From an uncultured Lachnospiraceae bacterium (GTDB lineage: Bacteria > Bacillota > Clostridia > Christensenellales > UBA1242), in contig CAZTNT010000001.1 of the NCBI GenBank assembly GCA_964614965.1, positions 1 through 36,074 on the forward strand: a DNA stretch of 36,074 nucleotides. Reading direction: 5' to 3'. This document shows positions 3,905-35,095 of this stretch, piece after piece (positions within the stretch are counted from its first letter, which is position 1; each line of letters begins with the position of its first letter). Under the pieces are notes generated by a model. It was not told the origin of the DNA, searched no databases, and saw nothing but the letters and a program-made list of their open reading frames with translations. The position numbers were made by a program, and so were the translations under genes.

Positions 3905-3942
3905 AATTTTTAGTGTTGAACATAATCACAATGGAGGCATGT

Positions 3943-14300: not shown

Positions 14301-17300
14301 AAAGTGATGTATATGAATCAGATGGTGAATTATACATTGATTTGAAAAAAGGTGACACTTATCAAGTTGAAGCAACAAATTATTCAAAATTGGGTGATGT
14401 CACTTTTGATGATATCATAATTCAAGTTGCAGCCGAAGATGGACAAGCTTTAAAGGCTTATGATTATTTCGAAATTGACCGAACAAACTCAAAAATAAAA
14501 GTAAAAGATGTGAATAGTGCTTATAATTTCACTTTGATTGTGTTTACAAAAGATGTTTTAAGTGAAAGAATTGAATCAACCATGTCTGGGTATGAAAATC
14601 CTTCCAGTTTCATTAAAAAGTTCGATTACGACAATAATAATTATTCAAATGCTTTTGTTAAAATTGCAATAAATTTATTTGATGGAAGTGTTTCTAGACC
14701 TATTCCAATTCATACATATGAGGATTTTTTGAATATTAATAAAGCTACTGAATTGCATTATGTTTTAAAGAACAACATTAATTTAAGCAATGGTTTTACA
14801 CCAATTGAAAATTTCACAGGATCACTTAAATCTTTTGGAAATGAAACATTCACAATTGATGGAATAACCCTTGATGGAACCAATGTTAACTTATTTAAAG
14901 ATTTCAAAGGGGAAATTGATAATATTAAATTTGGTGTTCAATATGCTTATGACATGAAGTCTAGTGCAAATGAAGTTTACTTAGGTTTATTTAACAAAAA
15001 TGCTGGAACACTTGAAAATGTTAAAGTTCAAATGTCTGGTTCTGCACAGTTGAAAGGCTCTGCAACCTATATCTTTGGAGGATTAGTTGGAGATAACCAT
15101 AATATAATTACATATTCAAGTGGATATGGAGTGGCAGGTAAGATAAGCATAACTGGAGAACAATCTACAACAGTATATTTTGGAGGATTGGTTGGTAGAA
15201 ACATTAATTTAATTAAAGGTTATGAAACTTCAAACAATCAAGGTGGAACAAATTCAATTACTATCGGTACAAACGGTGGGGTATCTCATGCAATTTCAAT
15301 GATTGAAGCAACAGAAACCACTCTTTATGGCGAAAGTTCAATTGGTGGAGTTGTTGGCTTAAACACATATGATGGTTCTAGCGTTGGAACCATAAAAAAC
15401 ATGTTTGTTAAAGCAAACATTGATGCCAATGCTTCAAATGTTGGTGGTGTGATTGGAACAAACAAGCAACAAGGAACTGTGAGTGTGGAAATTTCAAGCA
15501 ATATTCCAGTTAATTTTGATTCTGTTTTAACATCTCAAAACACTAAGGCAATCTACAATGTAAAATCTGCTTCAACAATCAATGCAAACAACAATGTTGG
15601 TGGAATTGTTGGAAATGATGAAAATGGTGTTTATGTTGAATGTGATTATCAAATTTTAAATACCACAAAGAATTCTATATGTGCGAATTCAAATGTCGGC
15701 GGAATTGCTGGATTCTCAAAATATGGTAAATTTGCTTATTGTTCAGTGATGAACTATAATTTGGATTATGAAGAATTAAATGTTGAAGACAAAACAGATT
15801 TAGTTATATCCATTAATTCTAATGCGGATATTTCGGGTGCTGACTATGTTGGTGGAATTGTTGGAAAAGCAGAAAGTTCAACTGACCCGATGTCATCTAC
15901 TGAAAAAAGATATGATAGAGTTATTGTGCTTTATTCAAGTGTTAATGCATACCTTAAAGCAACAAAAACTGATAACAACATTGGTGGAATTTTAACACAA
16001 GATGGAACAAAAACAGCAGACGATGGTCCGAACTTGCTTTTATATGGTGTTTACTTTATTGGTAAACTTGATGGAAATGTTGTTTATTATAATAAAACAA
16101 CAACAAATAACGGTGTACCAACAACTCATTACTTTGCTTTAGATAATGGATATGCATTGTTTGATCAATCATATTCAATTAACATTGAAGAAAATGTTAT
16201 TCGTTGTGGTTCAATGTCTGGAAATCAATTAATGACTAATTGGTTTGAGAATTTAAGCGATGATGATTATTCTCAACTTGCACTCTATTGGGGATGGTTA
16301 AAAAATGTTAATGGAGGTCACATTTTTATAACCACAACTCAAGAGGCAAACTCAGATTCACTTCCAATTTTTGATTTAGCTCCAGAAAGCATCACAGCAA
16401 CTGTTGTGAAACCAAAAGCAACAGGACTTGAAAAGGTTTTAATGCTGGATTATTATGATTTCTCATTGAACAGCATTTCAAATGAAGATTTGGAAAAATT
16501 AAATGAAAGTTATAATCGTAATCAATATATAATCGATCATATTGCTGGCAATGGAAATAGAACAGCTGGGTTGCTCAACATAACTGCAAAACCTGAAAAA
16601 ATTGGAAATGTTGTTGTGAGTGTTAGATCAACAGACCCATCTGTAATTGATATTAATTTTGATGGAAGAATAATTATCAACGGCGTTGGTGAATGTGAAT
16701 TAATTTTCAGTTCAATTTTGAATACAGAAGCAGAAGCAAGAATCAAGGTTGTTGTTGATTATCCGATTGGAGATCAATTCAATATAACAAAATATCCTAA
16801 TGATGAAGGAAGAATTGTTTCAGGAACAGAGAAAATTGCCCAAGGCACAACAAAACAATACTATGTTTTAACAAGTGGTTCTAAAACAATAAACCAAAAA
16901 TCAAATGAAAAAACTTATTCTTATATAACAAAAACAAATGTTTGGTTAGATATTGCAATTGAATGTAATGACGTTATAATTGAGGATTATGTTCAAATTA
17001 GTGGAAAAACAGCAACTTCAGTTGATTCAAAATTATCCATTAAATTGGATGACAAAACTCCATTCACAATTTCAGTTTTGAAAATGTTGGAAGATGATCA
17101 ATTTACGTTTACAATCAAACCATTTGTTGTGGTTGATGATATAGAAGTTTATCTTGAAACAGTAGACAATCAGGAAGCTAGCACAACTTTCAACTTGTCA
17201 ACTTTAAAGGGTGTTACAGGGGTATCGTTTAGTTATGATGATGCGATTGTTTATCCAAACGACACTGTTTACTTAACTATGCAACTTCAAACTGATGATC

Positions 17301-20300
17301 CACTTTGTCCTGACACAACAACTTCTTCTGCTAATGGAGATGTGCAAATTAGAATTGACGTCTTGAAAAACGTGATAAGTAACTTGTTAAATTTAGACCC
17401 TGACACTCAAAATTTATATAATTTGTCTTTAATGCTCAACAATAATCCAAATGTGAAATGTGCTATAAATGTTGACCGTTCGAGTTATAACAAAAACACT
17501 CAAATTCAAACAATAGTTTTGAGAATTGAATTTGAAGATATGAATCTTGAAGAACCTGAAAATATGAAAATTACATTGTCAACATTAGAAGATGATGCTT
17601 ATGCTCAAGTTAATTTCAAAATAATTCCTCAAAGAATTAATAAAATTGAAGTTAAAAACTATTATTATCGCTTAGATGATAACCAAGAAAAAGTTTTAGA
17701 ATTATATGATGTATTAAAACCGAATGATTTCGGTTTGATGATCATTGACCTTGTTCCAAACAATGCATATTATGATTATCTTGAAATTAGCGATATAACC
17801 GGAAATGAAGAAATTGTTTTCATTCAAATTGATGGTGATGGAAAAGCTTATAACCTTCAAGATGTTTCAAGTGATGGAAAAGGAATTAAATTATATAACT
17901 ACAATTCATCAAGACTTTATGTTAGAACTCAAATAAGCAACACATATTCTTCAAAACTTCACACAATTGAAATTCGTGCTTATGCTTCAGACAGAACACA
18001 GTTGGGGGATTCTTACAGGAAACAAATTGATGTTAGAATGCTTCCTCAAATTGACATTAAATATCTTAAACCGGATGGTAGTGTTGGTGCAAGCCTAAAT
18101 TCAACAGATAATGAAACCAGCAAAGATGGATTATACCTTGCAACTGGTGTGGATGCAATTTTCACAATCACAACTCAAAATGCGGATGAAATTATTGTCA
18201 GCAAAGATGGCTCAAGTGCTGGTGATTATGAAATTGAAAAGATTACAGAAACACAGTATAGATTAAAAGCAACAAATAAAGTTGACATTGGAAACAAAAT
18301 AACACTTAAAGTGAAAGCAATTTCTGAAATCAATGCTAACGACACTGATGAAACTGAATGTTCAATCACTTTCACAATTGTTGATTTTGTGATTCATGGT
18401 GTGAGCGTTAACAGTAGCATTAACAACTTAACAACAAAAGAAATCTATGGATATTACAATAGAGACGTTAAATTAAATTTCTATTTTAGCAAAACAGACG
18501 TAAGTTACTACGATTCCTCATCAACAGGTGAGAAGTTCTGGGACACTGAATACAATTATGGTGATGCATATGATGAAACAGATGATAATTTAGTTAAAAT
18601 CTATTCAATTTTGCAAGCTTTGAATGGATATGATTCGGCTGGCAACCTTCAAGAAACAAACGACTACTTAATATTAAATAAAAATAAGAAAGAAACAAGT
18701 GGACAGTATGATGAAGACGAAATACTTAATCAAGGACAAGTTAGTGGGCAAAAAGTTCAACTTTATCAAAACGTGTTAACCGTTCAAGAAGGATATGATA
18801 AAGAAACAGTTGAAAAAGATGGTAAAGAAGTAGAAGTTGATTCTCCTAAATATTTAGCAGTTGCGTTTAAATTAAATTATGATAAAGAAGCACCTACACC
18901 GTCTTGGGAATTGGCAACATTAAATTCTAGCATTGATAGAGGTGTTGTTGACTACAGCTATATTGTTGATGTTAACTTTAAACTTAATTTTATGAATGTA
19001 ACGCAATGGGATAATCCTGAGGTTGTCAACAATGTTGAAGATTTCTATAACATGGAATCAGGAAAGCAATATATTTTGAACACCGATTTAACGCTTGAAA
19101 ATCACACTCCAATTGATGCGGATTTAGTTTACTTTGATGGAAATGGTCACACAATCACAATTCATAGTTTCTCAACGTTTGAAGGAACTCAAATGAATGC
19201 GGGATTGTTTGCACAAGTTTACCCTAACATGATTGTTAAAAATGTTAATGTGAAATATGTTAGCATGAATGTGAATGGTAACTACACCTTCGGTCTTGTT
19301 AAAGGTAAATCAAATGGTTCATATGAAGTTGAATATGCTGATTTATCTCAAGGTTCAGCAGCTTTAACAAATGCAAACTTTGGTGGTGTTTGTGCAGTTA
19401 ACAAGGGTATTATAACTAATTGTTATGTCTCAGGATTGATTGCTGTTACAGCTTCTGCTCTTGGAACAAGTGAAGCAATGAATCTCGGTGGTTTGGTGGC
19501 GGAAAATTCATCAACAGGTTACATAACAAACTCTCACAGCGAATTGAATATGTTTGCATTGGCAAATATTGGTGGATTTGTTAATTCAAATAATGGAAAA
19601 ATTGCTTCGTGTGGAGTGGAAGAAAACGCAACAATTTATGGTTATCAACCGAACTTGGAAAACACAATCACAGCTCAATTTGCAGGATTTGTTGTTCAAA
19701 ATGCTGGCGAAATTTCAATGAGTTATGTAAACTTAAATGCATCAAGAATTGAAATTGGTTATGCAAAAAAGAACATGGTAAACAATGAAATTGAGAACGA
19801 TTATTTACGCTTAGAAATAAATGGTGGTAAGATGTCTGTGAAAGACAGCTCTGCAGGATTTGTTTATTCAAATTCAGGAAATATCTATGATGCGTATGTT
19901 CAAATGACGGAAATTGGTGTTAACAATAACTATTTTGCAGGATTTGTTTATTCAAATTCAGGAAATATCAACAGGGCATATACTTATCTCAATGAAGGTA
20001 AAATTGACATTTCTAACACATTTATGTTTGCACCTTCAAAAACATCTGGAATTGAAAATAGTGTTGAATTTATGTCTTCAACATCTTCAAGTTATAATAA
20101 TGGAATTGATGGATTGGAAACAAAACCAATAGCAATTAGGTATTCACGATCTTTCTTTGAGACTTTAGGTTTTGCTTTTGGTGATAATGAGAGTGCTGTT
20201 TGGCAAACTTCGGCAGGTAATGCGCCAAAACTTGTTTCAGCAAAACGCCTGGAGTTTAAAGCGCTTACAATTAATTATGTTCCAGACAATGATGTTTCAG

Positions 20301-22093
20301 ATGGTGTTGACAATTCTCGTTATGTACCTGATTATGGAACATATGGCACAAAAGAAAATCCATTCATAATCCATGATTTAACAACTTGGAATCGTTATTT
20401 TGATTATGACTTAAACAAGGGTATCATGACAGGATATTATCGAATTGTTAAAGATATTGACTTTGCTTCAGTTGGTAAAAACCCATCAACAAGTGAATTG
20501 ATTTTCCAAGGAAATATTCAAGGGAATAATATGCAACTCATGAATATGATGCTCTATTCAAATGAAGGTTTAGATTCATTGGGATTATTCAAAAAATTGC
20601 AAGGTGTGAGCGATAGTTCAATCCAAAATGCTGTTAGAAATTTACAAATTTCAGCAACATCAGTTTGGGCAAGTTCAACTAAATCGGTTGGAATACTTGC
20701 TGGCATCATTGAAAACTTTAACATCTATAATTTAACTATTGATTCTGAAGGCGTTATCATGGTTGGTAAAAATGCTGTTGGTGGTGTTGCGGGTGTTGTT
20801 AGAGGTGAATTTGATATGGATCAAATTTCATCAAACATCGGAGCAAACAGCACACGAGCTTCAACTTTGAATAGTTATTCAATTTATATGTCAGAAAACA
20901 ACAGCAAAAATGCTTCAGAAAATTTAAGCAATGTTTATTATGCTGGGGCTGTTGCGGGAATTTTAGACGGTTATTCAACAAGAAAGATTTATAACATTAA
21001 TGATGAAAGAAATTTGCAATCTGATTACTACAAAGTTAGAAACGTTAATGTGAGTGGGGCAGTAACAGTCGCTGGAGATACAATTGGTGGAGCTTTTGGT
21101 TTTGTTGGAGAAAGTGTTCTGGTGGATTCAGTTAATGTTAACATCACTGGTTCATTGTTCGGTTCACAATATTCAGCAGGAATTGTTGGAGAAAATAGAG
21201 GTGTTTTGAAAAATGCGAAAGTTGTTTTGCAAAACGGAATTTTCACCAATGCAAAAAATGTTCATGCTGGTGCAGTTGGATTGAATATAGGTGGACTTGT
21301 AAGCGATGTCAGCGCTCAAGCATTTATTGAAAAGAACAATTATGGATATGTTGTTGCTGGAATTGTTGGAAGGAATATTAACGGAGTTGTAACAAAAGTC
21401 TATTTCGATGGAGAGTTGTATGGTTATATCACTGGTGGAATTATTGGAACAGACTATGATTATAAAATTTACGAAAGTTTGACATCTGGTAGAAATTCCC
21501 TTAATGTTGAATGCAGAGATAATTTTAAAAACATTGTTCCTGAAAACACAGTTATGTATTCCGATGATTATAAACATTTACAAGAAGTTTCTATAGGTGG
21601 AGAAACATTGAATTGGATGATTAACAATTCAAATAGATTCTATGGCTATCAAAAACTTTCTTCAGGAGCAGAAGCAAATTTAACCAACTACACAGTTGAA
21701 AGCAAAGTCTTAGGACTTGTTGTTGGATTGAGTTATGATAATTCAGTTGCTCCAATTGGAGGAATTTATAAAGATATAAAAGAAACAAAAATTATCTTTA
21801 ATGGTCCAATAGATTCAACCGATGATAAAATGGATATAACAAGCGTAACTGTAAATGATAATAATGATGACATGATTACTACATATAACTTTAATGTATA
21901 TGGAAATATCGAACTAGAACTTAAAGAAGGAACAACATTCAATTTTGTTTCTCAAACGGGCGATATAAGTTATGTAATGTATTTATTGGGTTCTACAGTT
22001 GCATCATTTGATTCTTGGTCTACTTATGATGGCGAATATTTGATTTTTGGAACTTATACTCAAGAATCAATTCAAACTGAGCCTGAAAATTAA
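11399..22093 (+). CDS. Giant (3,564 aa) surface lipoprotein with three GLUG-like parallel beta-helix modules and an Ig-like (Big_2-like) domain
   Basis: Uninterrupted 10,695-nt ORF. The signal peptide has lipobox-like LFSC (Cys17) / FSAC (Cys23). There are three modules at about nt 14694-16100, 19008-20250 and 20338-21470. Each opens with P-x-x-I-x-x-x-E/W-D/N-F, then Y-x-L-x-x-D/N-I/L-x-L/F, then F-x-G-x-x-x-G-N-G/N-x-x-I/L (FDGNGHTITI in module 2). A train of G-G-[ILV]-[VA]-G / AGFV motifs follows. A Big_2-like segment lies at about 16390-16760 (GNVVVSVRSTDPSVIDINFDGRIIINGVGECELIFSS). Confidence 0.9.
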   Translation: MKKFYSFALIILSLFSCVVFSACGNKYKNLKMNIFSNEGEMLTVAEFVIDSSKGSTKTFCVEFLGIDKDDIGEIVVSSLPQELITVTNYSYSGNRCYVDITPNMSSGSDAKLVVSHLNSGKKKSINLSIDKKAENLNLVSNSYAIALPQTETVNHVVDFSQIVNLSPSGSTDKIYFKLADGSTLENHIKPINLTDVEGYEDVLTGFEVSVGKDFEVDIYPVTYMKGYIRGETDPYINKKIKIYFKNALSNDNVKIKDDISSLNLIANDESLNLFKVTLLNQNDELLMQTDCVNFYNLNHETSEQLKVSTFIDSNKDVIIKANTHTDDYVDVKIILSPKMPGNLPTVEKIIKVKGESKADTIYVEKFQQEVEDFNNVNIFDYYDDGGNSLGALFTFKPSTNNGSEVHEELKSMQIVIDPAILYIENCTPVPSGVSVDSTLFSLTFNHISLIPNDPFKEADLLKFTYKDGKMVSEEIGVNSRVYIKYIKHASGDGRYEPSSFGIDVVTLNKSENEFWKNLEQTKISLNFNRMEGVAKATLQAGEYYYQNNFMYPKVGAVSAPEYIYLDRLKGLNNTTANRTFVSIINESVESRDGGKIATTDFTVTVEPLQEVENPLKIAFGSINKDDLGNIGNNEKGVDKIVYKYDSKLETDIVSLVFRNNTSLGDYKITFYQENIEKVSLICRVYENLNGINESYIEIETNAKAFKNVNYIEQYQSQYIVASGQSLNLSINLPQAVLNSNIVVGYDLTQYEIKDSLIETIDEDPVEPGIDEEPINVKDYFDVKHDHDMLSTAVLDFKKGTYIKDKPQYVCLTIVVGTKIYSDITQESSEIDYSNIITLTFFIYEEIENKDASINHTSMTRYMTDCVGVYYEDLTKADLKITMADELWNYVTLIDSKQIKWSQNWSEAPIGKVENNDEHSCAITFNYSGVDSKYEVEISAFIQQFDNLFEYKCVFLVEKPILTQKLLIKSDVYESDGELYIDLKKGDTYQVEATNYSKLGDVTFDDIIIQVAAEDGQALKAYDYFEIDRTNSKIKVKDVNSAYNFTLIVFTKDVLSERIESTMSGYENPSSFIKKFDYDNNNYSNAFVKIAINLFDGSVSRPIPIHTYEDFLNINKATELHYVLKNNINLSNGFTPIENFTGSLKSFGNETFTIDGITLDGTNVNLFKDFKGEIDNIKFGVQYAYDMKSSANEVYLGLFNKNAGTLENVKVQMSGSAQLKGSATYIFGGLVGDNHNIITYSSGYGVAGKISITGEQSTTVYFGGLVGRNINLIKGYETSNNQGGTNSITIGTNGGVSHAISMIEATETTLYGESSIGGVVGLNTYDGSSVGTIKNMFVKANIDANASNVGGVIGTNKQQGTVSVEISSNIPVNFDSVLTSQNTKAIYNVKSASTINANNNVGGIVGNDENGVYVECDYQILNTTKNSICANSNVGGIAGFSKYGKFAYCSVMNYNLDYEELNVEDKTDLVISINSNADISGADYVGGIVGKAESSTDPMSSTEKRYDRVIVLYSSVNAYLKATKTDNNIGGILTQDGTKTADDGPNLLLYGVYFIGKLDGNVVYYNKTTTNNGVPTTHYFALDNGYALFDQSYSINIEENVIRCGSMSGNQLMTNWFENLSDDDYSQLALYWGWLKNVNGGHIFITTTQEANSDSLPIFDLAPESITATVVKPKATGLEKVLMLDYYDFSLNSISNEDLEKLNESYNRNQYIIDHIAGNGNRTAGLLNITAKPEKIGNVVVSVRSTDPSVIDINFDGRIIINGVGECELIFSSILNTEAEARIKVVVDYPIGDQFNITKYPNDEGRIVSGTEKIAQGTTKQYYVLTSGSKTINQKSNEKTYSYITKTNVWLDIAIECNDVIIEDYVQISGKTATSVDSKLSIKLDDKTPFTISVLKMLEDDQFTFTIKPFVVVDDIEVYLETVDNQEASTTFNLSTLKGVTGVSFSYDDAIVYPNDTVYLTMQLQTDDPLCPDTTTSSANGDVQIRIDVLKNVISNLLNLDPDTQNLYNLSLMLNNNPNVKCAINVDRSSYNKNTQIQTIVLRIEFEDMNLEEPENMKITLSTLEDDAYAQVNFKIIPQRINKIEVKNYYYRLDDNQEKVLELYDVLKPNDFGLMIIDLVPNNAYYDYLEISDITGNEEIVFIQIDGDGKAYNLQDVSSDGKGIKLYNYNSSRLYVRTQISNTYSSKLHTIEIRAYASDRTQLGDSYRKQIDVRMLPQIDIKYLKPDGSVGASLNSTDNETSKDGLYLATGVDAIFTITTQNADEIIVSKDGSSAGDYEIEKITETQYRLKATNKVDIGNKITLKVKAISEINANDTDETECSITFTIVDFVIHGVSVNSSINNLTTKEIYGYYNRDVKLNFYFSKTDVSYYDSSSTGEKFWDTEYNYGDAYDETDDNLVKIYSILQALNGYDSAGNLQETNDYLILNKNKKETSGQYDEDEILNQGQVSGQKVQLYQNVLTVQEGYDKETVEKDGKEVEVDSPKYLAVAFKLNYDKEAPTPSWELATLNSSIDRGVVDYSYIVDVNFKLNFMNVTQWDNPEVVNNVEDFYNMESGKQYILNTDLTLENHTPIDADLVYFDGNGHTITIHSFSTFEGTQMNAGLFAQVYPNMIVKNVNVKYVSMNVNGNYTFGLVKGKSNGSYEVEYADLSQGSAALTNANFGGVCAVNKGIITNCYVSGLIAVTASALGTSEAMNLGGLVAENSSTGYITNSHSELNMFALANIGGFVNSNNGKIASCGVEENATIYGYQPNLENTITAQFAGFVVQNAGEISMSYVNLNASRIEIGYAKKNMVNNEIENDYLRLEINGGKMSVKDSSAGFVYSNSGNIYDAYVQMTEIGVNNNYFAGFVYSNSGNINRAYTYLNEGKIDISNTFMFAPSKTSGIENSVEFMSSTSSSYNNGIDGLETKPIAIRYSRSFFETLGFAFGDNESAVWQTSAGNAPKLVSAKRLEFKALTINYVPDNDVSDGVDNSRYVPDYGTYGTKENPFIIHDLTTWNRYFDYDLNKGIMTGYYRIVKDIDFASVGKNPSTSELIFQGNIQGNNMQLMNMMLYSNEGLDSLGLFKKLQGVSDSSIQNAVRNLQISATSVWASSTKSVGILAGIIENFNIYNLTIDSEGVIMVGKNAVGGVAGVVRGEFDMDQISSNIGANSTRASTLNSYSIYMSENNSKNASENLSNVYYAGAVAGILDGYSTRKIYNINDERNLQSDYYKVRNVNVSGAVTVAGDTIGGAFGFVGESVLVDSVNVNITGSLFGSQYSAGIVGENRGVLKNAKVVLQNGIFTNAKNVHAGAVGLNIGGLVSDVSAQAFIEKNNYGYVVAGIVGRNINGVVTKVYFDGELYGYITGGIIGTDYDYKIYESLTSGRNSLNVECRDNFKNIVPENTVMYSDDYKHLQEVSIGGETLNWMINNSNRFYGYQKLSSGAEANLTNYTVESKVLGLVVGLSYDNSVAPIGGIYKDIKETKIIFNGPIDSTDDKMDITSVTVNDNNDDMITTYNFNVYGNIELELKEGTTFNFVSQTGDISYVMYLLGSTVASFDSWSTYDGEYLIFGTYTQESIQTEPEN

Positions 22094-24471: not shown

Positions 24472-24703
24472 AATCTCTCCTTTAAATTATGATATAATTA
24501 TTTTATATTTTTGTCAATAAAATATGTTTCAAAGTGATTTTTTATTATTTTTAATTAATTTATAAATAATTTTTTTTAAAAAATTAAATAAAATTCGCGA
24601 ATTATTAATTTTGTACATATATTTGTAATTCTACATTATAATAAAAAAATTTTAAAAAAATTAAAAAAATATTAAAAAATTATTAGTAATTAATATTTCT
24701 TTG

Positions 24704-24712
24704 TGTTATAAT
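24704..24712 (+). promoter_or_regulatory. Extended -10 promoter element upstream of the AT-hook protein gene
   Basis: TGtTATAAT at 24704-24712. No good -35, which is acceptable for extended -10 promoters. Confidence 0.35.
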
Positions 24713-24805
24713 AACAATGTAGATTAATGTCAAATGAAACAAATTATTGGTGAAAATTTGTGGCTTTGGCAACAAAATCATTTTGTGATATTAAGGGGTA
24801 TTTTT

Positions 24806-27229
24806 ATGGTCAACGTTTTTAAATATGTGGACAAGTTCTTCACATCATTGACAAATTATCTAACGTACAACTATATTTTTATTATCTTTATTGGATTATT
24901 TTTGTTCACTGCTTTATGTGTGATTTTTTTCACATCTCGTTCTTATGAAGCAAGATTAATAAAAGCAATTGATAAATTTAATGTTTATTTTATTGATAAT
25001 CCGCATATTAACGAGGAAAATTTGGTTGCGTTTAACGCAAAAATGAAGTCAAGAAAAGTTCCAAAGCAATTGAGAAAGAGTTGGCAACAATTCGTGCTTT
25101 ATCGTGAAGGAAAAGCAAGTTCTTATATGTCTTTTGAAAATTGCGTTGCAAATCCAATCAAAAACAGCACTTACACTCGTGATTTGAAAACAATGAATTC
25201 TTTTGCTTGGATTTTCAGCATATCTTCAATGATTTTAAATGCATATTATTGCTATGAAGTAGGCGATTTGGCTTCAATCTTGCAAAGCATTTTGCTCACT
25301 CCAGTTCTTATCCTATTATTGAATTACATAGTTCAAATTTTCTTAAATTTAAGACACAGCGCAATTGTTAGTGATTTATTCCAAAATTATCAATATTTTG
25401 AAGTTAACATTGACAAAGCAACTGAAACATTACCTGATTATGTTGATTATGAAGTTTTGTTTGACAAAAATGAAATTAAAAAAGGTATTCCAATTCTTTA
25501 TGCGTATCTTCAAAAACGTGCAGAAGAGGAACAACGAGAATTGGAAAGAGCTCGACTTAGAAACGTTGAACACGAAAAATTCAATTTTGATGATCAAGGG
25601 GTGGCTGCCTCTTTGGTTCTTGAAAGAGCGATGCAAGAAGCTGAAAACTATATTGCAGAACGTAAAAAATATAACCAAAACATTGGTCAAATTAACTCAG
25701 ATATCACTCAAGAAGATATGAATTATCGTGAAATCACGAAAGAATATAACCGTCAAATGCAAGTCAGCAAGGAAACATTTGAAAACTTCAAATCTCAATT
25801 GCAAGATGTTTCTTCTTCAATTGAAGCAAACTATTTAAAGAAGCAACAACAACAAGAATTGGATCGTCAACGTAATTTGGAACGTGACTTTGACACTGCA
25901 ACTGAAAGACATAAAAAAGTTATCGATGATTATCATGCAGAGCTTGATACTGTTGACAAATTTATTGCAACAAGTAGAAAAAATCTTGAAGATGCAATGA
26001 AGAGTGAGTTTAGTTCTTACAGTAGCAAAGTCTATGATGAAGCAAAGAAACTCGTTGAAGAAAGAGAAAAAGAAAAGATTGCTCAATTGAAGCAAGAAAT
26101 TGAAAATTTGGAAGAAGCTATTGTTGCAAAAAATCAAGAACTCGACAATGTTTATCAACAAAATCAAATTATGAGTGATAAACTTGAAGAGATTGGAATT
26201 GCTGTTAATGAACAACCGGGATATTCATCTTCATTTAAGCCAACAGAAACTGAACAACCTAAACAAGAACAACCAACATTTGAACCTTTAAAAGCAGAAC
26301 CTGTTGTAAATGAAGAACCAGAAGATGAAGAACCTCCAGTTGCTGAAATCAAACCAGAGTTCGTTGAACCTGTGGAAGAAACTCAAGCAGAAATAGAAGA
26401 AACTCCAGAAGAAACGGAAGAGGTTCAAGAAGAATTGGCGGAGCAAGAAACTGTTCAACCTGAAAACATTGAAAAAACTGAATATCTTTCTATAGAAGAA
26501 ATGATAGAACAATTAAAAGAAGAACAAGCAAATGAAGAAGCAACAGAAGAATTAAAAGAAGAAGATCAATTTTTTGATTTCGATGAGGAACTTCCATATG
26601 AACAATTAAATGCTGAAGATTTAAAACAAATCTCCACCGAATCAATTGATGATAGCATTGAAACAAAGCCAGTGTCAAAAAGGGGTAGACCAAGAAAGGT
26701 CGTTGATATGGCTCAAACTCAAGGGGAAAAGAAAAAGAGAGGTCGTCCAAGAAAAGAAAAGGTTGATGTTCAAGAACAACCAAAACGTAAAGTTGGTAGA
26801 CCTAAAAAATCAGAAAGCGTTGTTGAAACACAAGGATTATCAACTGAACCAAAACATGGAAGGGGAAGACCTAAAAAGCAAGTTGCTCAAGTCGAGGAAA
26901 AGGTTAAACTTGGTGTTGGTAGACCCAAAAAGGTTTCAACAGAAGAAGTGAAAACAGCTCCAGTAAAAAAAGGTCGTGGTCGTCCAAGAAAAGTTGTTGT
27001 AGAACAACCTGAGGTATCTCAAGTTAAGAGGGGTCGTGGTCGTCCAAGAAAAACTGAGCAAGAACAGGTTTCTAGCATTGCAAACGAAAAGGTTGAGAAT
27101 TTGTCAGACATCAAGGAAATTGATGAATATTTAAAAGAAATTGACAATCAAATTGCAGCTGAAAATGCAAAACTTGAAGAAACTCAAAGAGAACTTGCAA
27201 AAAAAGCTAAATTAAGAGCAAAAAAATAA
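24806..27229 (+). CDS. Membrane-anchored coiled-coil protein with an acidic E/P-rich spacer and seven C-terminal AT-hook (RGRP) motifs
   Basis: 807 aa from the ATG at 24806 (AAGGGG SD at 24793-24798). The upstream ATG at 24734 has no SD. It has three hydrophobic TM segments in the first ~200 aa, a charged heptad-like region, and an E/P-rich acidic region (nt ~26200-26650). Seven hooks follow at nt 26678-27052: KRGRPRK, KRGRPRK, KVGRPKK, GRGRPKK, GVGRPKK, GRGRPRK, GRGRPRK. It ends in a short coiled coil. Confidence 0.8.
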   Translation: MVNVFKYVDKFFTSLTNYLTYNYIFIIFIGLFLFTALCVIFFTSRSYEARLIKAIDKFNVYFIDNPHINEENLVAFNAKMKSRKVPKQLRKSWQQFVLYREGKASSYMSFENCVANPIKNSTYTRDLKTMNSFAWIFSISSMILNAYYCYEVGDLASILQSILLTPVLILLLNYIVQIFLNLRHSAIVSDLFQNYQYFEVNIDKATETLPDYVDYEVLFDKNEIKKGIPILYAYLQKRAEEEQRELERARLRNVEHEKFNFDDQGVAASLVLERAMQEAENYIAERKKYNQNIGQINSDITQEDMNYREITKEYNRQMQVSKETFENFKSQLQDVSSSIEANYLKKQQQQELDRQRNLERDFDTATERHKKVIDDYHAELDTVDKFIATSRKNLEDAMKSEFSSYSSKVYDEAKKLVEEREKEKIAQLKQEIENLEEAIVAKNQELDNVYQQNQIMSDKLEEIGIAVNEQPGYSSSFKPTETEQPKQEQPTFEPLKAEPVVNEEPEDEEPPVAEIKPEFVEPVEETQAEIEETPEETEEVQEELAEQETVQPENIEKTEYLSIEEMIEQLKEEQANEEATEELKEEDQFFDFDEELPYEQLNAEDLKQISTESIDDSIETKPVSKRGRPRKVVDMAQTQGEKKKRGRPRKEKVDVQEQPKRKVGRPKKSESVVETQGLSTEPKHGRGRPKKQVAQVEEKVKLGVGRPKKVSTEEVKTAPVKKGRGRPRKVVVEQPEVSQVKRGRGRPRKTEQEQVSSIANEKVENLSDIKEIDEYLKEIDNQIAAENAKLEETQRELAKKAKLRAKK

Positions 27230-27250
27230 GGCATCATGCCTTATTTTTTT
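27228..27250 (+). terminator. Rho-independent terminator
   Basis: AAGGCAT (27228-27234), C, ATGCCTT (27236-27242), followed by ATTTTTTT. The innermost pairs must open to form a loop. Confidence 0.6.
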
Positions 27251-27291
27251 GTTTCTAACAACAAAACACATTTTCGCTAGACAATAGTTTT

Positions 27292-27477
27292 TTACTTATT
27301 TAAAGCTTTTAACAATTCATTGACATCAACTTCATGAACAGCGCATGCTTCTTCCAAACTTTCCATTTGTGAACATGGGCAATATAAACAATGAAAACCA
27401 AAACTTGTTAAAATTTCTTCAGCTTTTGGATGGTTTTCCAAAACGAAACTAATGATATCTGTTTTTTTGAATTTCAT
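27292..27477 (-). CDS. DUF1858 / hybrid-cluster-protein-associated redox disulfide domain protein
   Basis: 61 aa. ...ISFVLENHPKAEEILTSFGFHCLYCPCSQMESLEEACAVHEVDVNELL matches the family consensus (..P....F...GMHCLGCP....ESIEEA...HG.D...LL). AAGGAGA SD. Confidence 0.7.
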   Translation of the reverse strand: MKFKKTDIISFVLENHPKAEEILTSFGFHCLYCPCSQMESLEEACAVHEVDVNELLKALNK

Positions 27478-29880: not shown

Positions 29881-29955
29881 GCCTCGATAGCTCAATGGTG
29901 GAGCAACCGGCTGTTAACCGGTAGGCTACAGGTTCGAGCCCTGTTCGGGGCGCCA
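29881..29955 (+). tRNA. tRNA-Asn (anticodon GTT), CCA encoded
   Basis: Acceptor stem GCCTCGA / TCGGGGC (one G-U pair). D-arm TAGCTCAATGGTGGAGCA. Anticodon stem-loop ACCGG-CTGTTAA-CCGGT. T-arm ACAGGTTCGAGCCCTGT. Discriminator G and CCA at 29953-29955. Confidence 0.9.
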
Positions 29956-30110: not shown

Positions 30111-30449
30111 ATGAAAGAAAATTTATTAATTTCAAAATCTAAAGATTTTGCATTAAAAATTATTGCACTATGCAAAAATATTAAAAATCAAGGAAGTTTA
30201 ACAAATCAACTACTTCGTTCAGCAACTAGCATAGGTGCAAACATTCACGAAGCAAATTATGCTCAAAGCAAAGCAGATTTTGTAAGTAAATTGCAAATTG
30301 CTTTAAAAGAGTGTTATGAAAGTGAATATTGGATTGATTTGCTAATTTCAGCAAATATAATAGGAGAAGAAAATAAAAATTTATTAGATGATTGTATTGA
30401 AATAAAAAAGATTTTAATCAAATCTTGCAAAACTGCAAAAGGTGAATAA
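30111..30449 (+). CDS. Four-helix-bundle protein (23S rRNA intervening-sequence protein / Avd-like family)
   Basis: 112 aa. QLLRSATSIGANIHEANYAQSKADFVSKLQIALKECYESEYWIDLL matches the family signature (R.A.SI.ANI.EG....S..DF..KL.IA.KE..ET.YWL.LL). Confidence 0.8.
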   Translation: MKENLLISKSKDFALKIIALCKNIKNQGSLTNQLLRSATSIGANIHEANYAQSKADFVSKLQIALKECYESEYWIDLLISANIIGEENKNLLDDCIEIKKILIKSCKTAKGE

Positions 30450-30559: not shown

Positions 30560-30616
30560 ATACAACTATTGATTTTTTATTTTGTGTATGGTATAATTAA
30601 ATTAAGAGGTAAAAAA

Positions 30617-33600
30617 ATGGCAAATAAAGAAGTCACTATTTATAAAGATAGATACCAAACATTAGAATACGCTAAATTAACTCGAACTCAAAAAGAAAAA
30701 TTAAAACTCGACGAAGTTTTTATAAAGTTTAATGGAAAAGCTGTTCCGCTTACTGAATTGTCTGTTATAATTAGTTCAGATGAAAAAACGGTTACAATGC
30801 GTAAATTAATTTCGATTGAGGATTTGCAAGAGAATATTGTTCAAAAAGCTGTCTGTGTGGGAACAAATGCTGAGGCAAAATTAACTGCAAACGATTATTT
30901 GCTGTTCACTCAAGCTGTTCCAGAATTCAAAATTTATACTTCACATTCAATCAATCCAAAAGGCAAAGAAATTCCGTATGGATTGAAAAGAACTTTGAAA
31001 GTGGAAGAAGCAACAGAAGGTGAAAAAGAAAAATATCGTTATGTTTTGCAACAAGGTAAATGGGAATTTGTTAAAGAAAATGATATTTTCTATTTTGATG
31101 GGGCAATCATAAAGCCATTTAAGGATTTGCCAGAAGATGTTGACCTTTCAACAATTCAATTGTTTGATGCGGAATATAAACAAATCACAAGTGTTTACAC
31201 AGGCAAGGCATACACATTTAAATCTCTAGTTCATGAAGAGGCTTACGAACAGTTTAATCCAACAACAAATGAGAAAAAGTCTTATATTTTAAAAGTTGAT
31301 GATAAATTATTGACAGATAGAGATTTTGAATTAGATGTTGAAGGAAAAACAATCACAGTTGATTCTCATCCGGTTGTTTTTGATAGATTCTACACAGAGC
31401 AAGAATATGTTCAAATTGAAGAACCAAAACCCAATTCGTCAGATATGCAAAAAGTTCACAAGAGAAAGGTCAGAAACTTTCAAACTAATGTTGACGGGAA
31501 GTTTGTTGCATTAACAATTCATGGCCAAGTTAAAATGGTTGACATTGAAAATCTTTATGATAGCAAAGGAAATAAAGTCACAGATTTGTCAAAAATGGTT
31601 GGAAAAAGAGTTAGAATTACGGAAGGTGACAAAGTTGTTGCAACTTCAGATTTCCTAACCTTCGAACAAGCAACCAGACGTTTCGACTCAATCAAAAGTC
31701 ACCAAGAAGTAAGTGGTCAAGCAACCGAAACATCTTTATTAAGATTAAATGATGGTAATTATGTTAATGAACTTGAATCAGTGCAACCAATTGCTTATAA
31801 ACTTGCGGATGACTCTTCAACAGATTTTGACAAGTTGTTAGTAGAACAAGTGGTTGGAACTGCAAAGAAATATGTTATTGTTGATAAGGATTTCTTGAGA
31901 AAAAGACCTAAAGGTTTCAATTTAAGCAGAGTTAAAAAACTTAAAAGATGTGCTTGGAAAGATTGTGATGTTATGCAATCTAAATCACAAAGACTTTCTG
32001 CTAAAGATAGAAAAACTGCCATTGAAGAATGCAGAGTTGTTGGAAAAGTAAGTTTTGGAGATGAAGTTCTTCCAACTGTTGATAAGAACACTCAATTTGA
32101 ATCATTTTTAACAGCATATAAAGAAGGTAATTACTATCTTGAAGATGTGGCGGTTGGAGATCAAATTAAAAAGATTGAAACTCCAGGGAAAAGATACGAA
32201 AACACTGACACATTCTACATGCATGATAAAGCTGCAGATAGTGTGTCATACAGAGCTTTGGAAACTCAAGATTTAACATTTGAAAACGGAAAAATCACTG
32301 GTAAACCAAAATATAATGTTGGCAAAGCAATTTGGGATTCTTATTCAAAAGGTTTTAAGCCAGCAGTTTATGCAACCGCAATAATTCCATTCTTTGGTGT
32401 GCTTCCTCTAACAGCCCCATTGTCAGTTGTTGCTGCTGTTGGCGTTGTGGGTATGATTCCAGCAGTTCCAATTTATCATATAATCAAAGGTGTTTTCAAA
32501 AACAACACTTTTGGTAAGTTAAAACGCGCATTAGGTAAATATAAAGATAAAACTGAAACAAACAGAGATATTGACGCAAACAACATTGAAAATGAACTTA
32601 AAATTTTAATGAATAAAAGTTCAAGCTTCACTCCAGAACAAGTAAATGATTTTTACAGTTCAAGAATTTTACCAAAAGTTGCGTCACTTTATCAAACAAC
32701 CAGTAACAATGCTTTGAGAATGGTTGATGGAAAAGCCAAAGTTGATTCAAGCAATGTTAATTTAGCAATTGATCAATGTGAAGAATATCGTGAAAATGCA
32801 AATCAAAGAACAACTTGTTCAAGAAGATTGAAAAGAGCACAATCTCAATTTGATCGTCAACAAAAAATCATGGATGATCTTGAAGCTAGAGGAAAAACTC
32901 CATCGAAGTTCCGTCAAAAAAGATATGATAATGCGAAAGATACTTTAGATAAACGTCAAGAAGCGTTTGATAAAGTTGAAGCAGATTATTTAGAACTTAT
33001 GAATGCAACTTTTGGTGAAGATTACAAAAAAGATGCAAGAGCGGATGATTTTATGAATTTAACAACCGGATTAAAAGTGTTTATAGAGTTAACCAAATTT
33101 AAAGATTCTTCATTGTGGGAACAATTTGCTGATTTAGGCTTATCACATGATGAAATAAAAGCAATGTTGTCATTTAACATTAAAAAAGGTTTAATGATTG
33201 ACGGAAAATCGGTTTTTGACAAAGATTTGGAAAATAAAAGACACTTTAAAAATGAAGGCTGGAAAAAGCTTAGAGAAAGAATCTTAAAAGCATGTGAAAT
33301 CGAGTCTTCAAATCTCATGGGTGAACGCGTTGATAAAGCAGAAGTGGTTGAAGAAGTTCCATTGGAAAAAATCCCATTAGAACTTGATGAAACAATTTCT
33401 AGGGATGTGATTGTTCAATTATTAACTGATTATCTAAATGCTGATGAAAAGATTACTACAAATTCTGGTGAATTAACTTACTTACAACAACTTGAAACTT
33501 CGTTAAATGCTAAATTAGAAGCATTAAATAACAATTTAAAGAACGAAGATTTAAAGGAAGATGAAAAAACATTAATTAATAATAGCATTCATGACACAAA

Positions 33601-35095
33601 AAAATCTTTGCAAATAATGAGTTCTGCAATTGAAGCATTTAAAAAATCAATTGAAGAATTAAACAATGTAAAAACATCAAAACAAGTTGAAATTCAAAAA
33701 CTAGAACCACAAATTCTTGAAATGATAGAATCTGATGAAGAGCTTAAAGAATTATATGAAAAATATAAAACTTCTCTAAATATCAAAAATGAAAAAGATG
33801 CGGACTTGGATGTTGATAAAGATGTTGTTGATGAAGAAACTCCAGTTGTTGAAAAAGTGAATGTTGAGTTTGTTATTAATCATATAAGTGATATTGAAAA
33901 GTTCTTAACTGAAGAAGAAAAATTAAGAAAAGTAATTTCAGATAAGGAATTGGAAATTAAGCAACTTTCAAAACAAATTCTTGAAGTGAATGCAAAGAGA
34001 ATAAAAAAAGAACAAGAGTTAAGGAACGGAACAACAGAAGAAAAGAATAAAGAACTTCAAGAAATTCAAAGCGATTTAGAAAAACTTAAACAACTTAGAG
34101 AAAAATATACAACAGAGTTAAAAGGGTTAGAAACACAAAAAACCCAATATAATGCGGAGATAAATAGACTCGAGAAAGAAATTGCGGATATGAAAGGTCA
34201 AGACCCAGTTATTGATAAAATAATTGATGCACGCGAAAAACAAAAAGAAAGAGCAGATAAAGAAGTGGAAAGAGCTTCGCGTGAAGCACTTGACGCTATG
34301 ACAAGAGAAACTGATTTAAGAAAATTAATACGTGATTTAGGTTTAGAAAAAGATGCTCTTGAAGCGCAAAATCAAGACTTGCAAAGTAGATTAATTTCAA
34401 ATGATAAATTGATTAGTGGATTCAAAGGTTCTATGTCAAAGGTTGATGAATCAATTGCTCAAATTGAAAAAGATATCAGCTTAATTGATGAACAAATTAA
34501 AGCAAAGCAAAAAGAATATGACGCTTTGTTAACAAAAATTGAAAATAGCACAAATTTAACACAAACAAACAAAGAAATTGAAGCTTATCAAAAACAATTA
34601 AAAGCAATATCTTCTCAAATCAGTCAAAAGAGACTTATTTTAGATTCTCTTAAGATTGAAGCAGAGAAATTTAAAAATCTATGGAAAGAGGCTTTGATTC
34701 CTGAAGGAGAAACAACACACGAGGAAAATCAAAAACGTGTTGAAAAAATTTCTGAACTTATTGCTTCAACTGAAAGTAAATTAAATCTTATTAAAGATTT
34801 AGAGATTAAGAAACTTAAAGGAAAGAAGAAAAAAGAATTTGATGCTAACATAAATAGTGAAGATAACTTAAAATATCTCTTGATTGATAGAGATTCTGGA
34901 CTATTTGATTATTTGAATGAACAAGGAATCCACCCAACTGATAAAGAAATTGAATCAGCTATAGATTTGATTGATAGTAAGCATTCAGAGGGTGTAAAAG
35001 CAACTTCAAGGTCAACAAAGGTAGTTAACAAAATTTTAATTGAAGGTCAAGCATATATCACTAAGGTATTATCTAAAGGTTACAGCAATTTTTAA
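30617..35095 (+). CDS. 1,492-aa orphan protein: ~580-aa N-terminal domain, central TM hairpin, ~850-aa C-terminal coiled coil
   Basis: ATG at 30617 with an AAGAGGT SD at 30604-30610. The track start at 30569 is a TTG without an SD. Two adjacent hydrophobic helices (AVYATAIIPFFGVLPLTAPLSVVAAVGVVGMIPAVPIYHII) lie at nt ~32358-32490. The C-terminal half is a long K/E/L/Q-rich heptad-like sequence. I see no Walker A or other catalytic motif. Confidence 0.85.
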   Translation: MANKEVTIYKDRYQTLEYAKLTRTQKEKLKLDEVFIKFNGKAVPLTELSVIISSDEKTVTMRKLISIEDLQENIVQKAVCVGTNAEAKLTANDYLLFTQAVPEFKIYTSHSINPKGKEIPYGLKRTLKVEEATEGEKEKYRYVLQQGKWEFVKENDIFYFDGAIIKPFKDLPEDVDLSTIQLFDAEYKQITSVYTGKAYTFKSLVHEEAYEQFNPTTNEKKSYILKVDDKLLTDRDFELDVEGKTITVDSHPVVFDRFYTEQEYVQIEEPKPNSSDMQKVHKRKVRNFQTNVDGKFVALTIHGQVKMVDIENLYDSKGNKVTDLSKMVGKRVRITEGDKVVATSDFLTFEQATRRFDSIKSHQEVSGQATETSLLRLNDGNYVNELESVQPIAYKLADDSSTDFDKLLVEQVVGTAKKYVIVDKDFLRKRPKGFNLSRVKKLKRCAWKDCDVMQSKSQRLSAKDRKTAIEECRVVGKVSFGDEVLPTVDKNTQFESFLTAYKEGNYYLEDVAVGDQIKKIETPGKRYENTDTFYMHDKAADSVSYRALETQDLTFENGKITGKPKYNVGKAIWDSYSKGFKPAVYATAIIPFFGVLPLTAPLSVVAAVGVVGMIPAVPIYHIIKGVFKNNTFGKLKRALGKYKDKTETNRDIDANNIENELKILMNKSSSFTPEQVNDFYSSRILPKVASLYQTTSNNALRMVDGKAKVDSSNVNLAIDQCEEYRENANQRTTCSRRLKRAQSQFDRQQKIMDDLEARGKTPSKFRQKRYDNAKDTLDKRQEAFDKVEADYLELMNATFGEDYKKDARADDFMNLTTGLKVFIELTKFKDSSLWEQFADLGLSHDEIKAMLSFNIKKGLMIDGKSVFDKDLENKRHFKNEGWKKLRERILKACEIESSNLMGERVDKAEVVEEVPLEKIPLELDETISRDVIVQLLTDYLNADEKITTNSGELTYLQQLETSLNAKLEALNNNLKNEDLKEDEKTLINNSIHDTKKSLQIMSSAIEAFKKSIEELNNVKTSKQVEIQKLEPQILEMIESDEELKELYEKYKTSLNIKNEKDADLDVDKDVVDEETPVVEKVNVEFVINHISDIEKFLTEEEKLRKVISDKELEIKQLSKQILEVNAKRIKKEQELRNGTTEEKNKELQEIQSDLEKLKQLREKYTTELKGLETQKTQYNAEINRLEKEIADMKGQDPVIDKIIDAREKQKERADKEVERASREALDAMTRETDLRKLIRDLGLEKDALEAQNQDLQSRLISNDKLISGFKGSMSKVDESIAQIEKDISLIDEQIKAKQKEYDALLTKIENSTNLTQTNKEIEAYQKQLKAISSQISQKRLILDSLKIEAEKFKNLWKEALIPEGETTHEENQKRVEKISELIASTESKLNLIKDLEIKKLKGKKKKEFDANINSEDNLKYLLIDRDSGLFDYLNEQGIHPTDKEIESAIDLIDSKHSEGVKATSRSTKVVNKILIEGQAYITKVLSKGYSNF

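Follow-up and report, generated by a model that had tools for sequence, protein, structure and literature searches.

A candidate nucleoid-to-membrane tether in uncultured gut Clostridia combines a stator-like membrane domain with an array of AT-hooks

Why should an integral membrane protein of a bacterium end in an array of AT-hooks, a module familiar from eukaryotic HMGA proteins? The question is raised by a gene on the forward strand at 24806-27229 in a 36,074-nucleotide (nt) stretch of DNA from an uncultured Lachnospiraceae bacterium (GTDB lineage Bacteria; Bacillota; Clostridia; Christensenellales; UBA1242; assembly GCA_964614965.1, contig CAZTNT010000001.1). We refer to this whole stretch as the window, and all coordinates are given in it. 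A first reading of the bare sequence, here called the original prediction, described the product as three transmembrane (TM) segments followed by a helical stalk, an acidic spacer, seven hooks and a final helix, and suggested that it staples the nucleoid to the membrane. The layout is as described. We give an even chance to the protein being a nucleoid-to-membrane tether, a chromosomal housekeeping-type integral membrane protein, and on its sequence it could plausibly act in anchoring, segregation or occlusion. Stator-like membrane proteins and HMGA-like DNA-binding tails are each known singly; it is their combination that has not been described before.

The hooks, and the DNA repeat that encodes two of them, are as follows.

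26678-27052, forward strand: seven AT-hooks (KRGRPRK twice, KVGRPKK, GRGRPKK, GVGRPKK, GRGRPRK twice), spaced by 18-23 amino acids; supported by Pfam and by homologs
26972-26992, forward strand: first copy of a 21-nt repeat, encoding hook 6; GGTCGTGGTCGTCCAAGAAAA
27032-27052, forward strand: second copy of the 21-nt repeat, encoding hook 7; GGTCGTGGTCGTCCAAGAAAA

The seven sequences and their positions had been predicted exactly, as had both copies of the repeat. Motifs of the form ..GRP[RK][KR] begin at residues 625, 644, 662, 685, 703, 723 and 743. The profile search that had been proposed as a check gave a match of the Pfam AT_hook model (PF02178) to six stretches, scoring 45.7 bits compared to a gathering cutoff of 17.4; Pfam assigns no other family to the protein. 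When residues 620-760 were shuffled 200,000 times, GRP[RK] motifs numbered 0.04 on average and at most 3, against the 7 observed. No hook motifs occur in other frames or open reading frames (ORFs) of the window, save for the reverse-complement shadow of hooks 6 and 7. The hook cores are written in different codons (GGT AGA CCA, GGT CGT CCA, GGA AGA CCT and GGT AGA CCC), a sign that selection acts on the peptide; identical DNA is common to hooks 6 and 7 only. A recent tandem duplication at the DNA level was rejected as the source of the array, in that Tandem Repeats Finder (TRF) detected none and a repeat finder returned the core only.

The array is retained in related proteins. A search of ~5.8 billion proteins yielded 304 relatives, of which the best 120 are 50-100% identical. 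All but one of these 120 bear between 4 and 11 GRP[RK] motifs placed ~18-20 amino acids apart, followed by a conserved tail of ~50 amino acids; the sole hook-less protein is truncated, on a 2-kb contig. The suspicion that hook number is evolving is thus borne out by the closest homologs, and the general lack of RGRP repeats in homologs that would have spoken for drift is not what we see. G-R-P-[RK] is invariant among hooks and homologs while the spacers between the hooks diverge. A neighbour-joining tree of the N-terminal domains (115 taxa) contains 6 changes of hook state, with the hook bearers falling into two large, stable clades. By this comparison of sequences the hooks are ancient, and are maintained at the protein level while their copy number varies; they are not drift.

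The hooks lie in a disordered basic tail that also contains an acidic segment, the layout found in HMGA and CarD. The net charge is -43 over residues 500-620 and +29 over residues 620-750. The canonical core of HMGA1 hook 1 is K-R-G-R-G-R-P-R-K, and our protein shares with HMGA1 and HMGA2 both the canonical core and the presence of several hooks in a disordered region with an acidic stretch. By contrast, the HMGA proteins are small, soluble and nuclear, with three hooks, and their acidic tail is C-terminal to the hooks. The order is that of the Myxococcus xanthus protein CarD, whose intrinsically disordered tail likewise has its RGRP AT-hooks after an acidic segment (PMC4374960). In CarD an HMGA-like domain and an H1-like one can functionally replace each other, and orthologs of another lineage carry an H1-like tail (PMC2919716). 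CarD differs in being a soluble transcription factor of myxobacteria with four hooks that binds RNA polymerase and CarG, whereas our protein is integral to the membrane and clostridial, with 4-11 hooks among its close homologs; the N-terminal domains are unrelated.

How far do the hooks extend beyond close relatives? A hidden Markov model (HMM) search with an N-domain profile against 1.84 billion representatives of 50%-identity clusters found 244 proteins at E <= 1e-3, 157 of them at E <= 1e-30; in almost every case the match covers the full region 1-465. The N-terminal ~460 amino acids are on this evidence a family of at least 244 50%-identity clusters that lacks a Pfam model. In the first 460 residues of the target and of ten relatives no Pfam, NCBIfam or PADLOC model was matched, coiled-coil noise aside. 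The family is seen only in uncultured gut Clostridia (Candidatus Onthoplasma and relatives); the only named carriers are metagenome-assembled genomes (MAGs) labelled 'Clostridia/Clostridiales bacterium' or 'Christensenella sp.', and Candidatus Onthoplasma (Christensenellaceae per NCBI).

Three classes of tail were found among 115 full-length representatives. At least 3 hooks are present in 46 (~40% of clusters), 32 are hook-less and strongly basic (~28%, H1-like) and 37 are weakly basic (~32%). In 104 of the 115 the basic window comes after an acidic one. Basic tails without hooks consist of histone-H1-like K/A/T/P repeats, such as KKTATKKAATKKATTKK... in one representative (P0215) and APKPAAKPA... 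in another (P0158); the former scores 40.8 bits with the Pfam HC2 model, for which the cutoff is 40. Likeness to chlamydial Hc2 (PF07382) is confined to such tails of distant family members and is not a property of the window protein; Hc2 is moreover a soluble nucleoid-condensing protein, unlike the target. Judged by the sequences, then, hooks are one lineage's form of the tail and do not define the family. The combination of TM segments, coiled coil and AT-hooks put forward in the original prediction therefore describes the closest homologs well, and the wider family only in part. HMGA-like and H1-like tails alternate on a conserved N-terminal body, as is known for CarD, and by this analogy the swap supports non-specific DNA binding as the job of the tail, being an independent evolutionary argument. 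The parallel also provides an independent evolutionary argument for interchangeable DNA-binding tail modules in bacteria.

The remainder of the protein is arranged as follows, as predicted from the family alignment and from AlphaFold (AF2) models.

24806-24871, forward strand: N-terminal segment, residues 1-22, a short amphipathic helix predicted to be extracellular; mean of 1.8 lysine plus arginine (K+R), variable length; AF2 helix at residues 3-18
24872-24934, forward strand: TM1, residues 23-43; Kyte-Doolittle maximum 3.06; AF2 helix at residues 21-44
24935-25192, forward strand: cytoplasmic loop 1, residues 44-129, from the family alignment; four short AF2 helices with predicted local distance difference test (pLDDT) ~90
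25193-25255, forward strand: TM2, residues 130-150; small/polar stripe T/A134, A/S138, S/T141, G/N145
25256-25273, forward strand: external TM2-TM3 loop, residues 151-156; 4-22 amino acids in homologs, with almost no K/R
25274-25345, forward strand: TM3, residues 157-180; P166 invariant; the helix runs on into the cytoplasm to about residue 208
25346-26191, forward strand: conserved cytoplasmic helical stalk, residues 181-462; identity 0.75-0.99 per 20-residue block; AF2 helices
26192-26665, forward strand: acidic E/P-rich linker, residues 463-620; net charge -43 over residues 500-620; homolog identity 0.1-0.2, gappy
27083-27226, forward strand: conserved C-terminal helix, residues 760-807; identity 0.5-0.67 in homologs; motif present in distant relatives

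Topology was assessed on an alignment of 36 diverse N-terminal domains that are 33-74% identical to the query. The mean K+R content over the 36 members is 1.8 in the N-terminus, 14.1 in loop 1 and 0.3 in the TM2-TM3 loop, and the latter varies in length as external loops do. Because of this positive-inside pattern and the variable loop, the sequences clearly predict a topology with the N-terminus outside, loop 1 inside, the TM2-TM3 hairpin outside and the C-terminus inside, so that the stalk and the hooks would lie in the cytoplasm. The cytoplasmic C-terminus, earlier proposed from the single protein, is thus consistent with the charge distribution across the family. TM1 and TM3 are strongly hydrophobic; TM2 is weaker in hydropathy than either, yet it is a helix in the AlphaFold model and is present in all homologs. 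Loop 1 is highly conserved. It has a fixed length of 83-86 amino acids that include 11-17 K+R, and the residues E48, N59, P86, W93, Q94, R100, C113 and P117 are invariant.

The membrane part was modelled twice. A first AlphaFold run on residues 1-470 with 21 close homologs gave a mediocre pLDDT of 72.8, its best matches in the PDB being ZorA, TolQ, ExbB and MotA. This was replaced by a second run on residues 1-262 with the 36 diverse N-domains, which gave a pLDDT of 88.6 and a predicted template modelling score (pTM) of 0.74. In a Foldseek comparison of the second model with the PDB the top 18 of 93 matches come without exception from ZorA, TolQ or ExbB. First in rank is Escherichia coli ZorA (8qyd_A; E 6e-3, probability 1.00, TMq, the query-normalized template modelling score (TM-score), 0.52), and 8qyy_A, also ZorA, has a target-normalized score (TMt) of 0.55. 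Shewanella ZorA (8vvn_C) gives TM-scores of 0.47/0.51 with a root-mean-square deviation of 6.0 Å and TolQ (9ddm_A) gives 0.41/0.46, compared to a TM-score of ~0.3 for the best unrelated matches. The model suggests that the membrane part has the stator-A fold of the 5:2 ion-driven motors, nearest to ZorA and then to TolQ and ExbB. The protein is indeed integrated into the membrane, as originally proposed, but with such a fold it is unlikely to be a mere anchor.

ZorA is the A subunit of the proton-driven ZorA5B2 motor of the Zorya defence system, in which a ~70-nm pentameric helical tail extends from TM3 (PMC11946911). Our protein resembles ZorA (8qyd, 8qyy, 8vvn) in being matched best in structure (TM-score 0.47-0.55, Foldseek probability 0.97-1.00), and in having three TM helices of the same topology, a membrane-proximal cytoplasmic domain and a long helical tail after TM3. 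It differs in lacking detectable sequence similarity and nearby ZorB, ZorC or ZorD, and in its housekeeping synteny in place of a defence island. The tail is also shorter, with ~280 helical residues compared to ~500, and terminates in an acidic linker, an AT-hook array and a short helix (residues 760-807) that ZorA does not have. TolQ, ExbB and MotA (PF01618) occupy ranks 3-18 of the fold search and share the N-out/C-in arrangement of three TM helices, the large cytoplasmic TM1-TM2 loop and the tight TM2-TM3 hairpin; unlike them our protein has no match to this Pfam model and no adjoining TolR, ExbD or MotB, and they for their part lack a long tail or a DNA-binding module. In predicted fold and layout the protein is most like ZorA; its sequence, operon context and genomic behaviour place it outside the MotA/ExbB/TolQ/ZorA family as this is currently defined.

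The stalk contains the family-invariant motif P210-x-YVDYE-x-LF-xx-EI-xx-GIP-x-L-xx-YL-x-KRA, and AlphaFold predicts long helices at residues 263-334 and 338-462. The proximal helix has a periodicity of 3.52 residues, i.e. a heptad repeat; that of the distal helix, measured on the sequence as well as on the family profile, is 3.66, near to a hendecad. The distal value fits, but does not prove, a straight or right-handed bundle like that of the ZorA tail. On the model the two long helices comprise ~200 residues, which would span roughly 30 nm if extended as a bundle; for the stalk the estimate is some 30-40 nm. The most conserved regions of the protein are loop residues 60-125 and helical residues 180-420, TM2 and TM3 being less conserved and the acidic linker unconserved; the segment ANYLKKQQQQELDRQRNLER retains 99% identity in sequences whose overall identity is below 80%. 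Since the loop and stalk are the most conserved, the core function of the family probably resides there. The ~300-residue charged coiled coil of the original prediction is consistent with the long predicted helices, but it is no bland spacer, being the most conserved part of the protein.

The linker that follows is disordered and acidic, of ~155 amino acids. Within it (26375-26564) TRF finds short GAA-rich tandem repeats with periods of 9-21 nt, which suggest that the length of the spacer varies by slippage, matching the gappy alignment of the linker. The C-terminal helix has the family-wide motif I-xx-EN-x-KL-xxx-Q-x-EL and a K-rich end. Two short helical motifs, 'EL..IQ..I..EN.KL...Q.EL' and a terminal 'L..LL..I.KK', recur family-wide in varying order. 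Y/D/G/N-rich repeated inserts, e.g. 'YYDENGNVVDF..YYD.NGN' and 'YFDANGHEFFYDKEGNPYY', are found in the linkers of P0152, P0186, P0205, P0206, P0215, P0143 and P0174. No Pfam repeat matches them above threshold, the sole trace being MORN_2 at E 0.66. We considered cell-wall-binding repeats, which would have placed the tail outside, and rejected these as Pfam found none.

Is this a gene of the cell or of a mobile element or defence system? The elements of the transcription unit are as follows.

24793-24798, forward strand: Shine-Dalgarno-like AAGGGG, from the sequence; homolog N-termini fit the ATG at 24806
24806-27229, forward strand: complete coding sequence, 807 amino acids plus stop, monocistronic; neighbours divergent upstream and convergent downstream
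27219-27251, no strand assigned: palindromic hairpin between A- and T-runs, a probable bidirectional terminator in common with a convergent DUF1858 gene

The mechanical ORF on the forward strand spans 24734-27229, and the annotated protein has 831 amino acids. We take the ATG at 24806 as the start because AAGGGG precedes it with a gap of 7-8 nt and because ~60 non-redundant homologs share the N-terminus M-[VF]-x-[VI]-F-K-Y-V-D-K-F at this position; the start chosen in the original prediction is thus better than that of the mechanical ORF. The gene is monocistronic, between a divergent upstream and a convergent downstream neighbour. The gene content of the window is entirely of housekeeping character: Dus, a MurJ-like flippase, HU, a TadA-like deaminase, an M14 peptidase, RlmH and CAAX proteases, together with a VTT-domain protein, a Cmk-like kinase, QueH, Alr, a Zn-peptidase, DUF1858, an LtaS-like sulfatase and tRNA-Asn. 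The gene order QueH-Alr-Zn-peptidase(-)/target/DUF1858(-)-LtaS is retained in ~30 species-level MAGs. Across these syntenic loci the N-domain is 59-80% identical, compared to 47-66% for Alr and 44-67% for LtaS, and is therefore conserved at least as well as these neighbours. Homologs are absent from 50,697 phage and 72,556 plasmid records, and an origin from a mobile element was rejected on the basis of these collections. Being monocistronic, kept in housekeeping synteny, conserved in its N-domain and without phage or plasmid homologs, the gene has the sequence signature of a core cellular gene and not of a defence gene.

Given these properties, the preferred reading can be set out as a mechanism. 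The protein would oligomerise in the membrane, plausibly as a pentamer by analogy with its structural relatives, so presenting ~35 hooks per complex. The stalk would project tens of nanometres into the cytoplasm, where many weak AT-hooks of low specificity might grip the minor groove of a 30%-GC chromosome. Nucleoid DNA would thereby be coupled to the membrane for the organisation or positioning of the chromosome. The loop and stalk, 90-99% conserved, would probably recruit a partner as the ancestral function of the family, and the type of DNA-binding tail, AT-hook or H1-like, would be interchangeable between lineages.

To our knowledge chromosome-membrane coupling is known in few model organisms, and always through peripheral or adaptor proteins with folded sequence-specific domains. 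Noc, RacA-DivIVA and RocS tether DNA to the membrane using ParB-like or helix-turn-helix domains, and reach the membrane peripherally by amphipathic helices or an adaptor; the proposed function is similar to theirs, with no relation in sequence or fold. Profiles for EzrA (PF06160), SMC, ParB/Noc and DivIVA gave no real match to the protein, the 17.6 bits for SMC_prok_A against a cutoff of 729 being noise. Closer parallels in layout are found in eukaryotic organelles. Plastid MFP1 has a TM segment, a coiled coil and a C-terminal DNA-binding region. In the trypanosome tripartite attachment complex (TAC; p166, TAC102, TAC53) an AT-hook/SPKK protein beside the kinetoplast DNA is joined to a coiled-coil protein of the membrane (PMC13108849). 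As in TAC and MFP1/PEND, our protein has a membrane segment with a coiled coil directed toward the genome compartment, and like TAC it has a basic DNA-proximal element (in TAC, AT-hooks and SPKK) beside AT-rich DNA; unlike it, TAC divides the roles among several proteins, and these systems are eukaryotic and organellar with no sequence homology to ours. The bacterial AT-hook proteins in the literature searched are soluble regulators, viz. CarD, WhiB7 and WhiB. This literature yielded no characterised membrane-anchored multi-AT-hook protein, as the original prediction had stated, and no description of the present family.

If the tether is real, it would be an integral-membrane solution to the problem that uses a eukaryote-type minor-groove module of low specificity, suited to a 30%-GC genome. 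With this family the structural class of ZorA, TolQ and ExbB comes to include a conserved, long-tailed housekeeping protein that apparently has no partner. One may then ask if stator-like scaffolds also serve purposes other than as motors, and if there is a motor that acts on DNA. A family that is large and unannotated also lends itself cleanly to annotation, as does its isolated tail to biochemistry.

A number of observations weigh against a stator-like DNA tether. In the fold search no match reached E <= 0.001, the usual significance threshold, and the query was a predicted monomer. At the level of sequence the MotA_ExbB model (PF01618) gave no match at E <= 10 in the target or at E <= 1 in 10 relatives; with E. 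coli ExbB and TolQ, hhalign reached a probability of <1% and aligned the TM1 stretch alone; hmmsearch of PDB sequences with two profiles found no match, and the PADLOC ZorA models did not match the target protein. Only five of the seven hooks have the RGRP core, the remaining two being VGRP. AT-hooks can bind RNA and proteins too (PMC11354804). The weakly basic tails of about one-third of the wider family suggest that DNA binding is perhaps not the core function, and may because of this be an add-on to a core function of loop and stalk. Lastly, no cultured carrier is known.

Some of these points lead to an alternative that we regard as rather unlikely though deserving of attention, in which the protein is a membrane scaffold, in division, the envelope or elsewhere, that acts through its loop and stalk. 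The basic tail would then be an accessory, directed not to chromosomal DNA but to RNA or ribosomes, polyphosphate or anionic lipids, or would be an autoinhibitory polyampholyte. The far better conservation of loop and stalk than of the tail fits such a role, as do the representatives without a strongly basic tail and the documented binding of RNA and protein by hooks; moreover, a C-terminal peptide or helix present in all subfamilies resembles a partner-binding motif. Yet a GRP core flanked by R/K is a specific motif for the minor groove, and in five of the hooks the core is identical to that of HMGA-type hooks. The alternative tails are H1/Hc2-like, again of a DNA-binding type, and CarD too has the acidic segment of its DNA-binding domain ahead of the hooks. 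These features argue against such a scaffold.

Could the protein instead be the A subunit of a true ion-driven 5:2 rotary motor that has its B-subunit gene at an unlinked site? Rotation of a pentameric tail powered by the proton-motive force (PMF) would then be coupled to DNA, and could serve Zorya-like sensing or handling of incoming DNA, or the moving or twisting of chromosomal DNA. The match in fold and topology to ZorA, TolQ and ExbB argues for this, and so does the long helical cytoplasmic tail, as in ZorA (PMC11946911), with a distal periodicity of 3.66 residues that fits a non-left-handed bundle. TM2 carries a small/polar stripe, with S or T in 72% of members at position 141 and in 64% at position 134, and TM3 has an invariant P166, with G or N at position 173. 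However, TM2 is poorly conserved save for this stripe and TM3 keeps only P166 and G/N173, whereas in real stators TM2 and TM3, which line the B subunit, are the most conserved segments; here they are among the least conserved of the N-terminal domain. In ZorA the ion path is lined by conserved polar residues of TM2 and TM3, T147 and S184.

The search for a partner likewise speaks against a motor. No gene for a B subunit of MotB, ExbD, TolR or ZorB type is present in the 36-kb window, in the flanks of 39 species-level homologous loci or beside two distant members; these loci cover three syntenic contexts, and a B gene may lie elsewhere in the genome. Such a B subunit would have a single TM helix with an essential Asp, and a domain that binds peptidoglycan or a partner. 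Zorya systems are operons of ZorB with ZorC/ZorD (or ZorE/F/G) in variable defence regions. ZorC and ZorD are not encoded nearby, and there are no relevant PADLOC matches for a Zorya system. Taken with the housekeeping surroundings, the lack of a defence island and the absence of phage or plasmid homologs, these results make a motor unlikely. Membership of the stators or of Zorya was rejected for want of a sequence match and a B subunit, and in view of the little-conserved TM2 and TM3 and the housekeeping synteny. Two neighbours were examined as partners and rejected: a PRC-barrel-like gene product of distant members, which is soluble, without a TM helix and absent from Onthoplasma-type loci, and AddAB, which is adjacent in two distant lineages only. 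The more specific notion that a PMF-driven 5:2-type A subunit with ~35 AT-hooks on its pentameric tail pulls, spools or twists the nucleoid is improbable. If the motor reading were true, it would mean a PMF-powered chromosome-handling machine in wall-bearing gut Clostridia.

Two further explanations can be given little weight. That the hooks are low-complexity drift without specific function in a disordered basic region would account for a repeat-prone sequence, a variable number of hooks and the slippage-type repeats of the adjoining linker, but it is largely refuted by the homologs (invariant G-R-P-[RK] between diverging spacers), the differing codons, the shuffles and the stability of hook state on the tree, and we consider it very improbable. 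A C-terminal half lying outside the cell, bound to polyanions such as teichoic acids or extracellular DNA, would require that TM2, which is only moderately hydrophobic, be no real TM segment while the basic loop remained inside; we think this scarcely credible, as TM2 is a confident helix (pLDDT ~90) packed with TM1 and TM3 and present in all members, the charge distribution fits an N-out/C-in topology, and no member tested has cell-wall-binding repeats.

We return to the tether and its surroundings. The window has a GC content of ~30% throughout. The ~330-bp intergenic region upstream of the gene (24472-24805) is of extreme A/T richness, with long runs of A and of T, and a consensus scan of it found no convincing promoter. 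If the protein binds A/T-rich DNA, one might speculate that its own upstream region is a prime target. An HU-type nucleoid protein is encoded in the window (3913-4215, forward strand; Bac_DNA_binding, 91.7 bits), and therefore the organism has ordinary nucleoid-associated proteins besides the AT-hook protein.

The convergent neighbour (27292-27477, reverse strand) encodes a 61-residue DUF1858 protein with a CxxC pair. Nearly all homologous loci retain it, with 60-87% identity, and a DUF1858 gene is found close to the target in a distant relative too (L042). In the two distant lineages (L040, 460-6925; L042, 889-7856) the homolog is directly downstream of addB-addA, which encode a helicase-nuclease for double-strand-break repair; this adjacency is seen in these two only and not in Onthoplasma-type loci. 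The homolog is followed there by a convergent PRC-barrel-like gene and then a Band_7_1 gene, again an arrangement that was not seen in Onthoplasma-type loci. Two contigs of the MAG CALCEI01 (L021 and L025) carry family copies 65% and 66% identical to the query, being either a paralog pair or the result of a mixed bin.

A giant ORF of 3564 amino acids (11399-22093, forward strand) has a lipoprotein-type signal (MKKFYSFALIILSLFSCVVFSAC|G) and is rich in N, S, I, V and G. It matches no family in Pfam or PADLOC, and is presumably a huge surface lipoprotein or adhesin. Downstream of the target gene an ORF of 1508 amino acids (30569-35095, forward strand), rich in K, E and L, has no Pfam match; its sole match is a weak one to PADLOC JetC (E 8e-6), which corresponds to DUF3584, an SMC-like, coiled-coil match. 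Several of the homologous loci likewise have, downstream of the target gene, ORFs with weak similarity to this one (25-32% identity). Ahead of this ORF there is a free-standing gene (30111-30449, forward strand) for a 23S rRNA-intervening sequence protein (PF05635, a four-helix-bundle family), with a tRNA-Asn gene (29881-29955) just before it.

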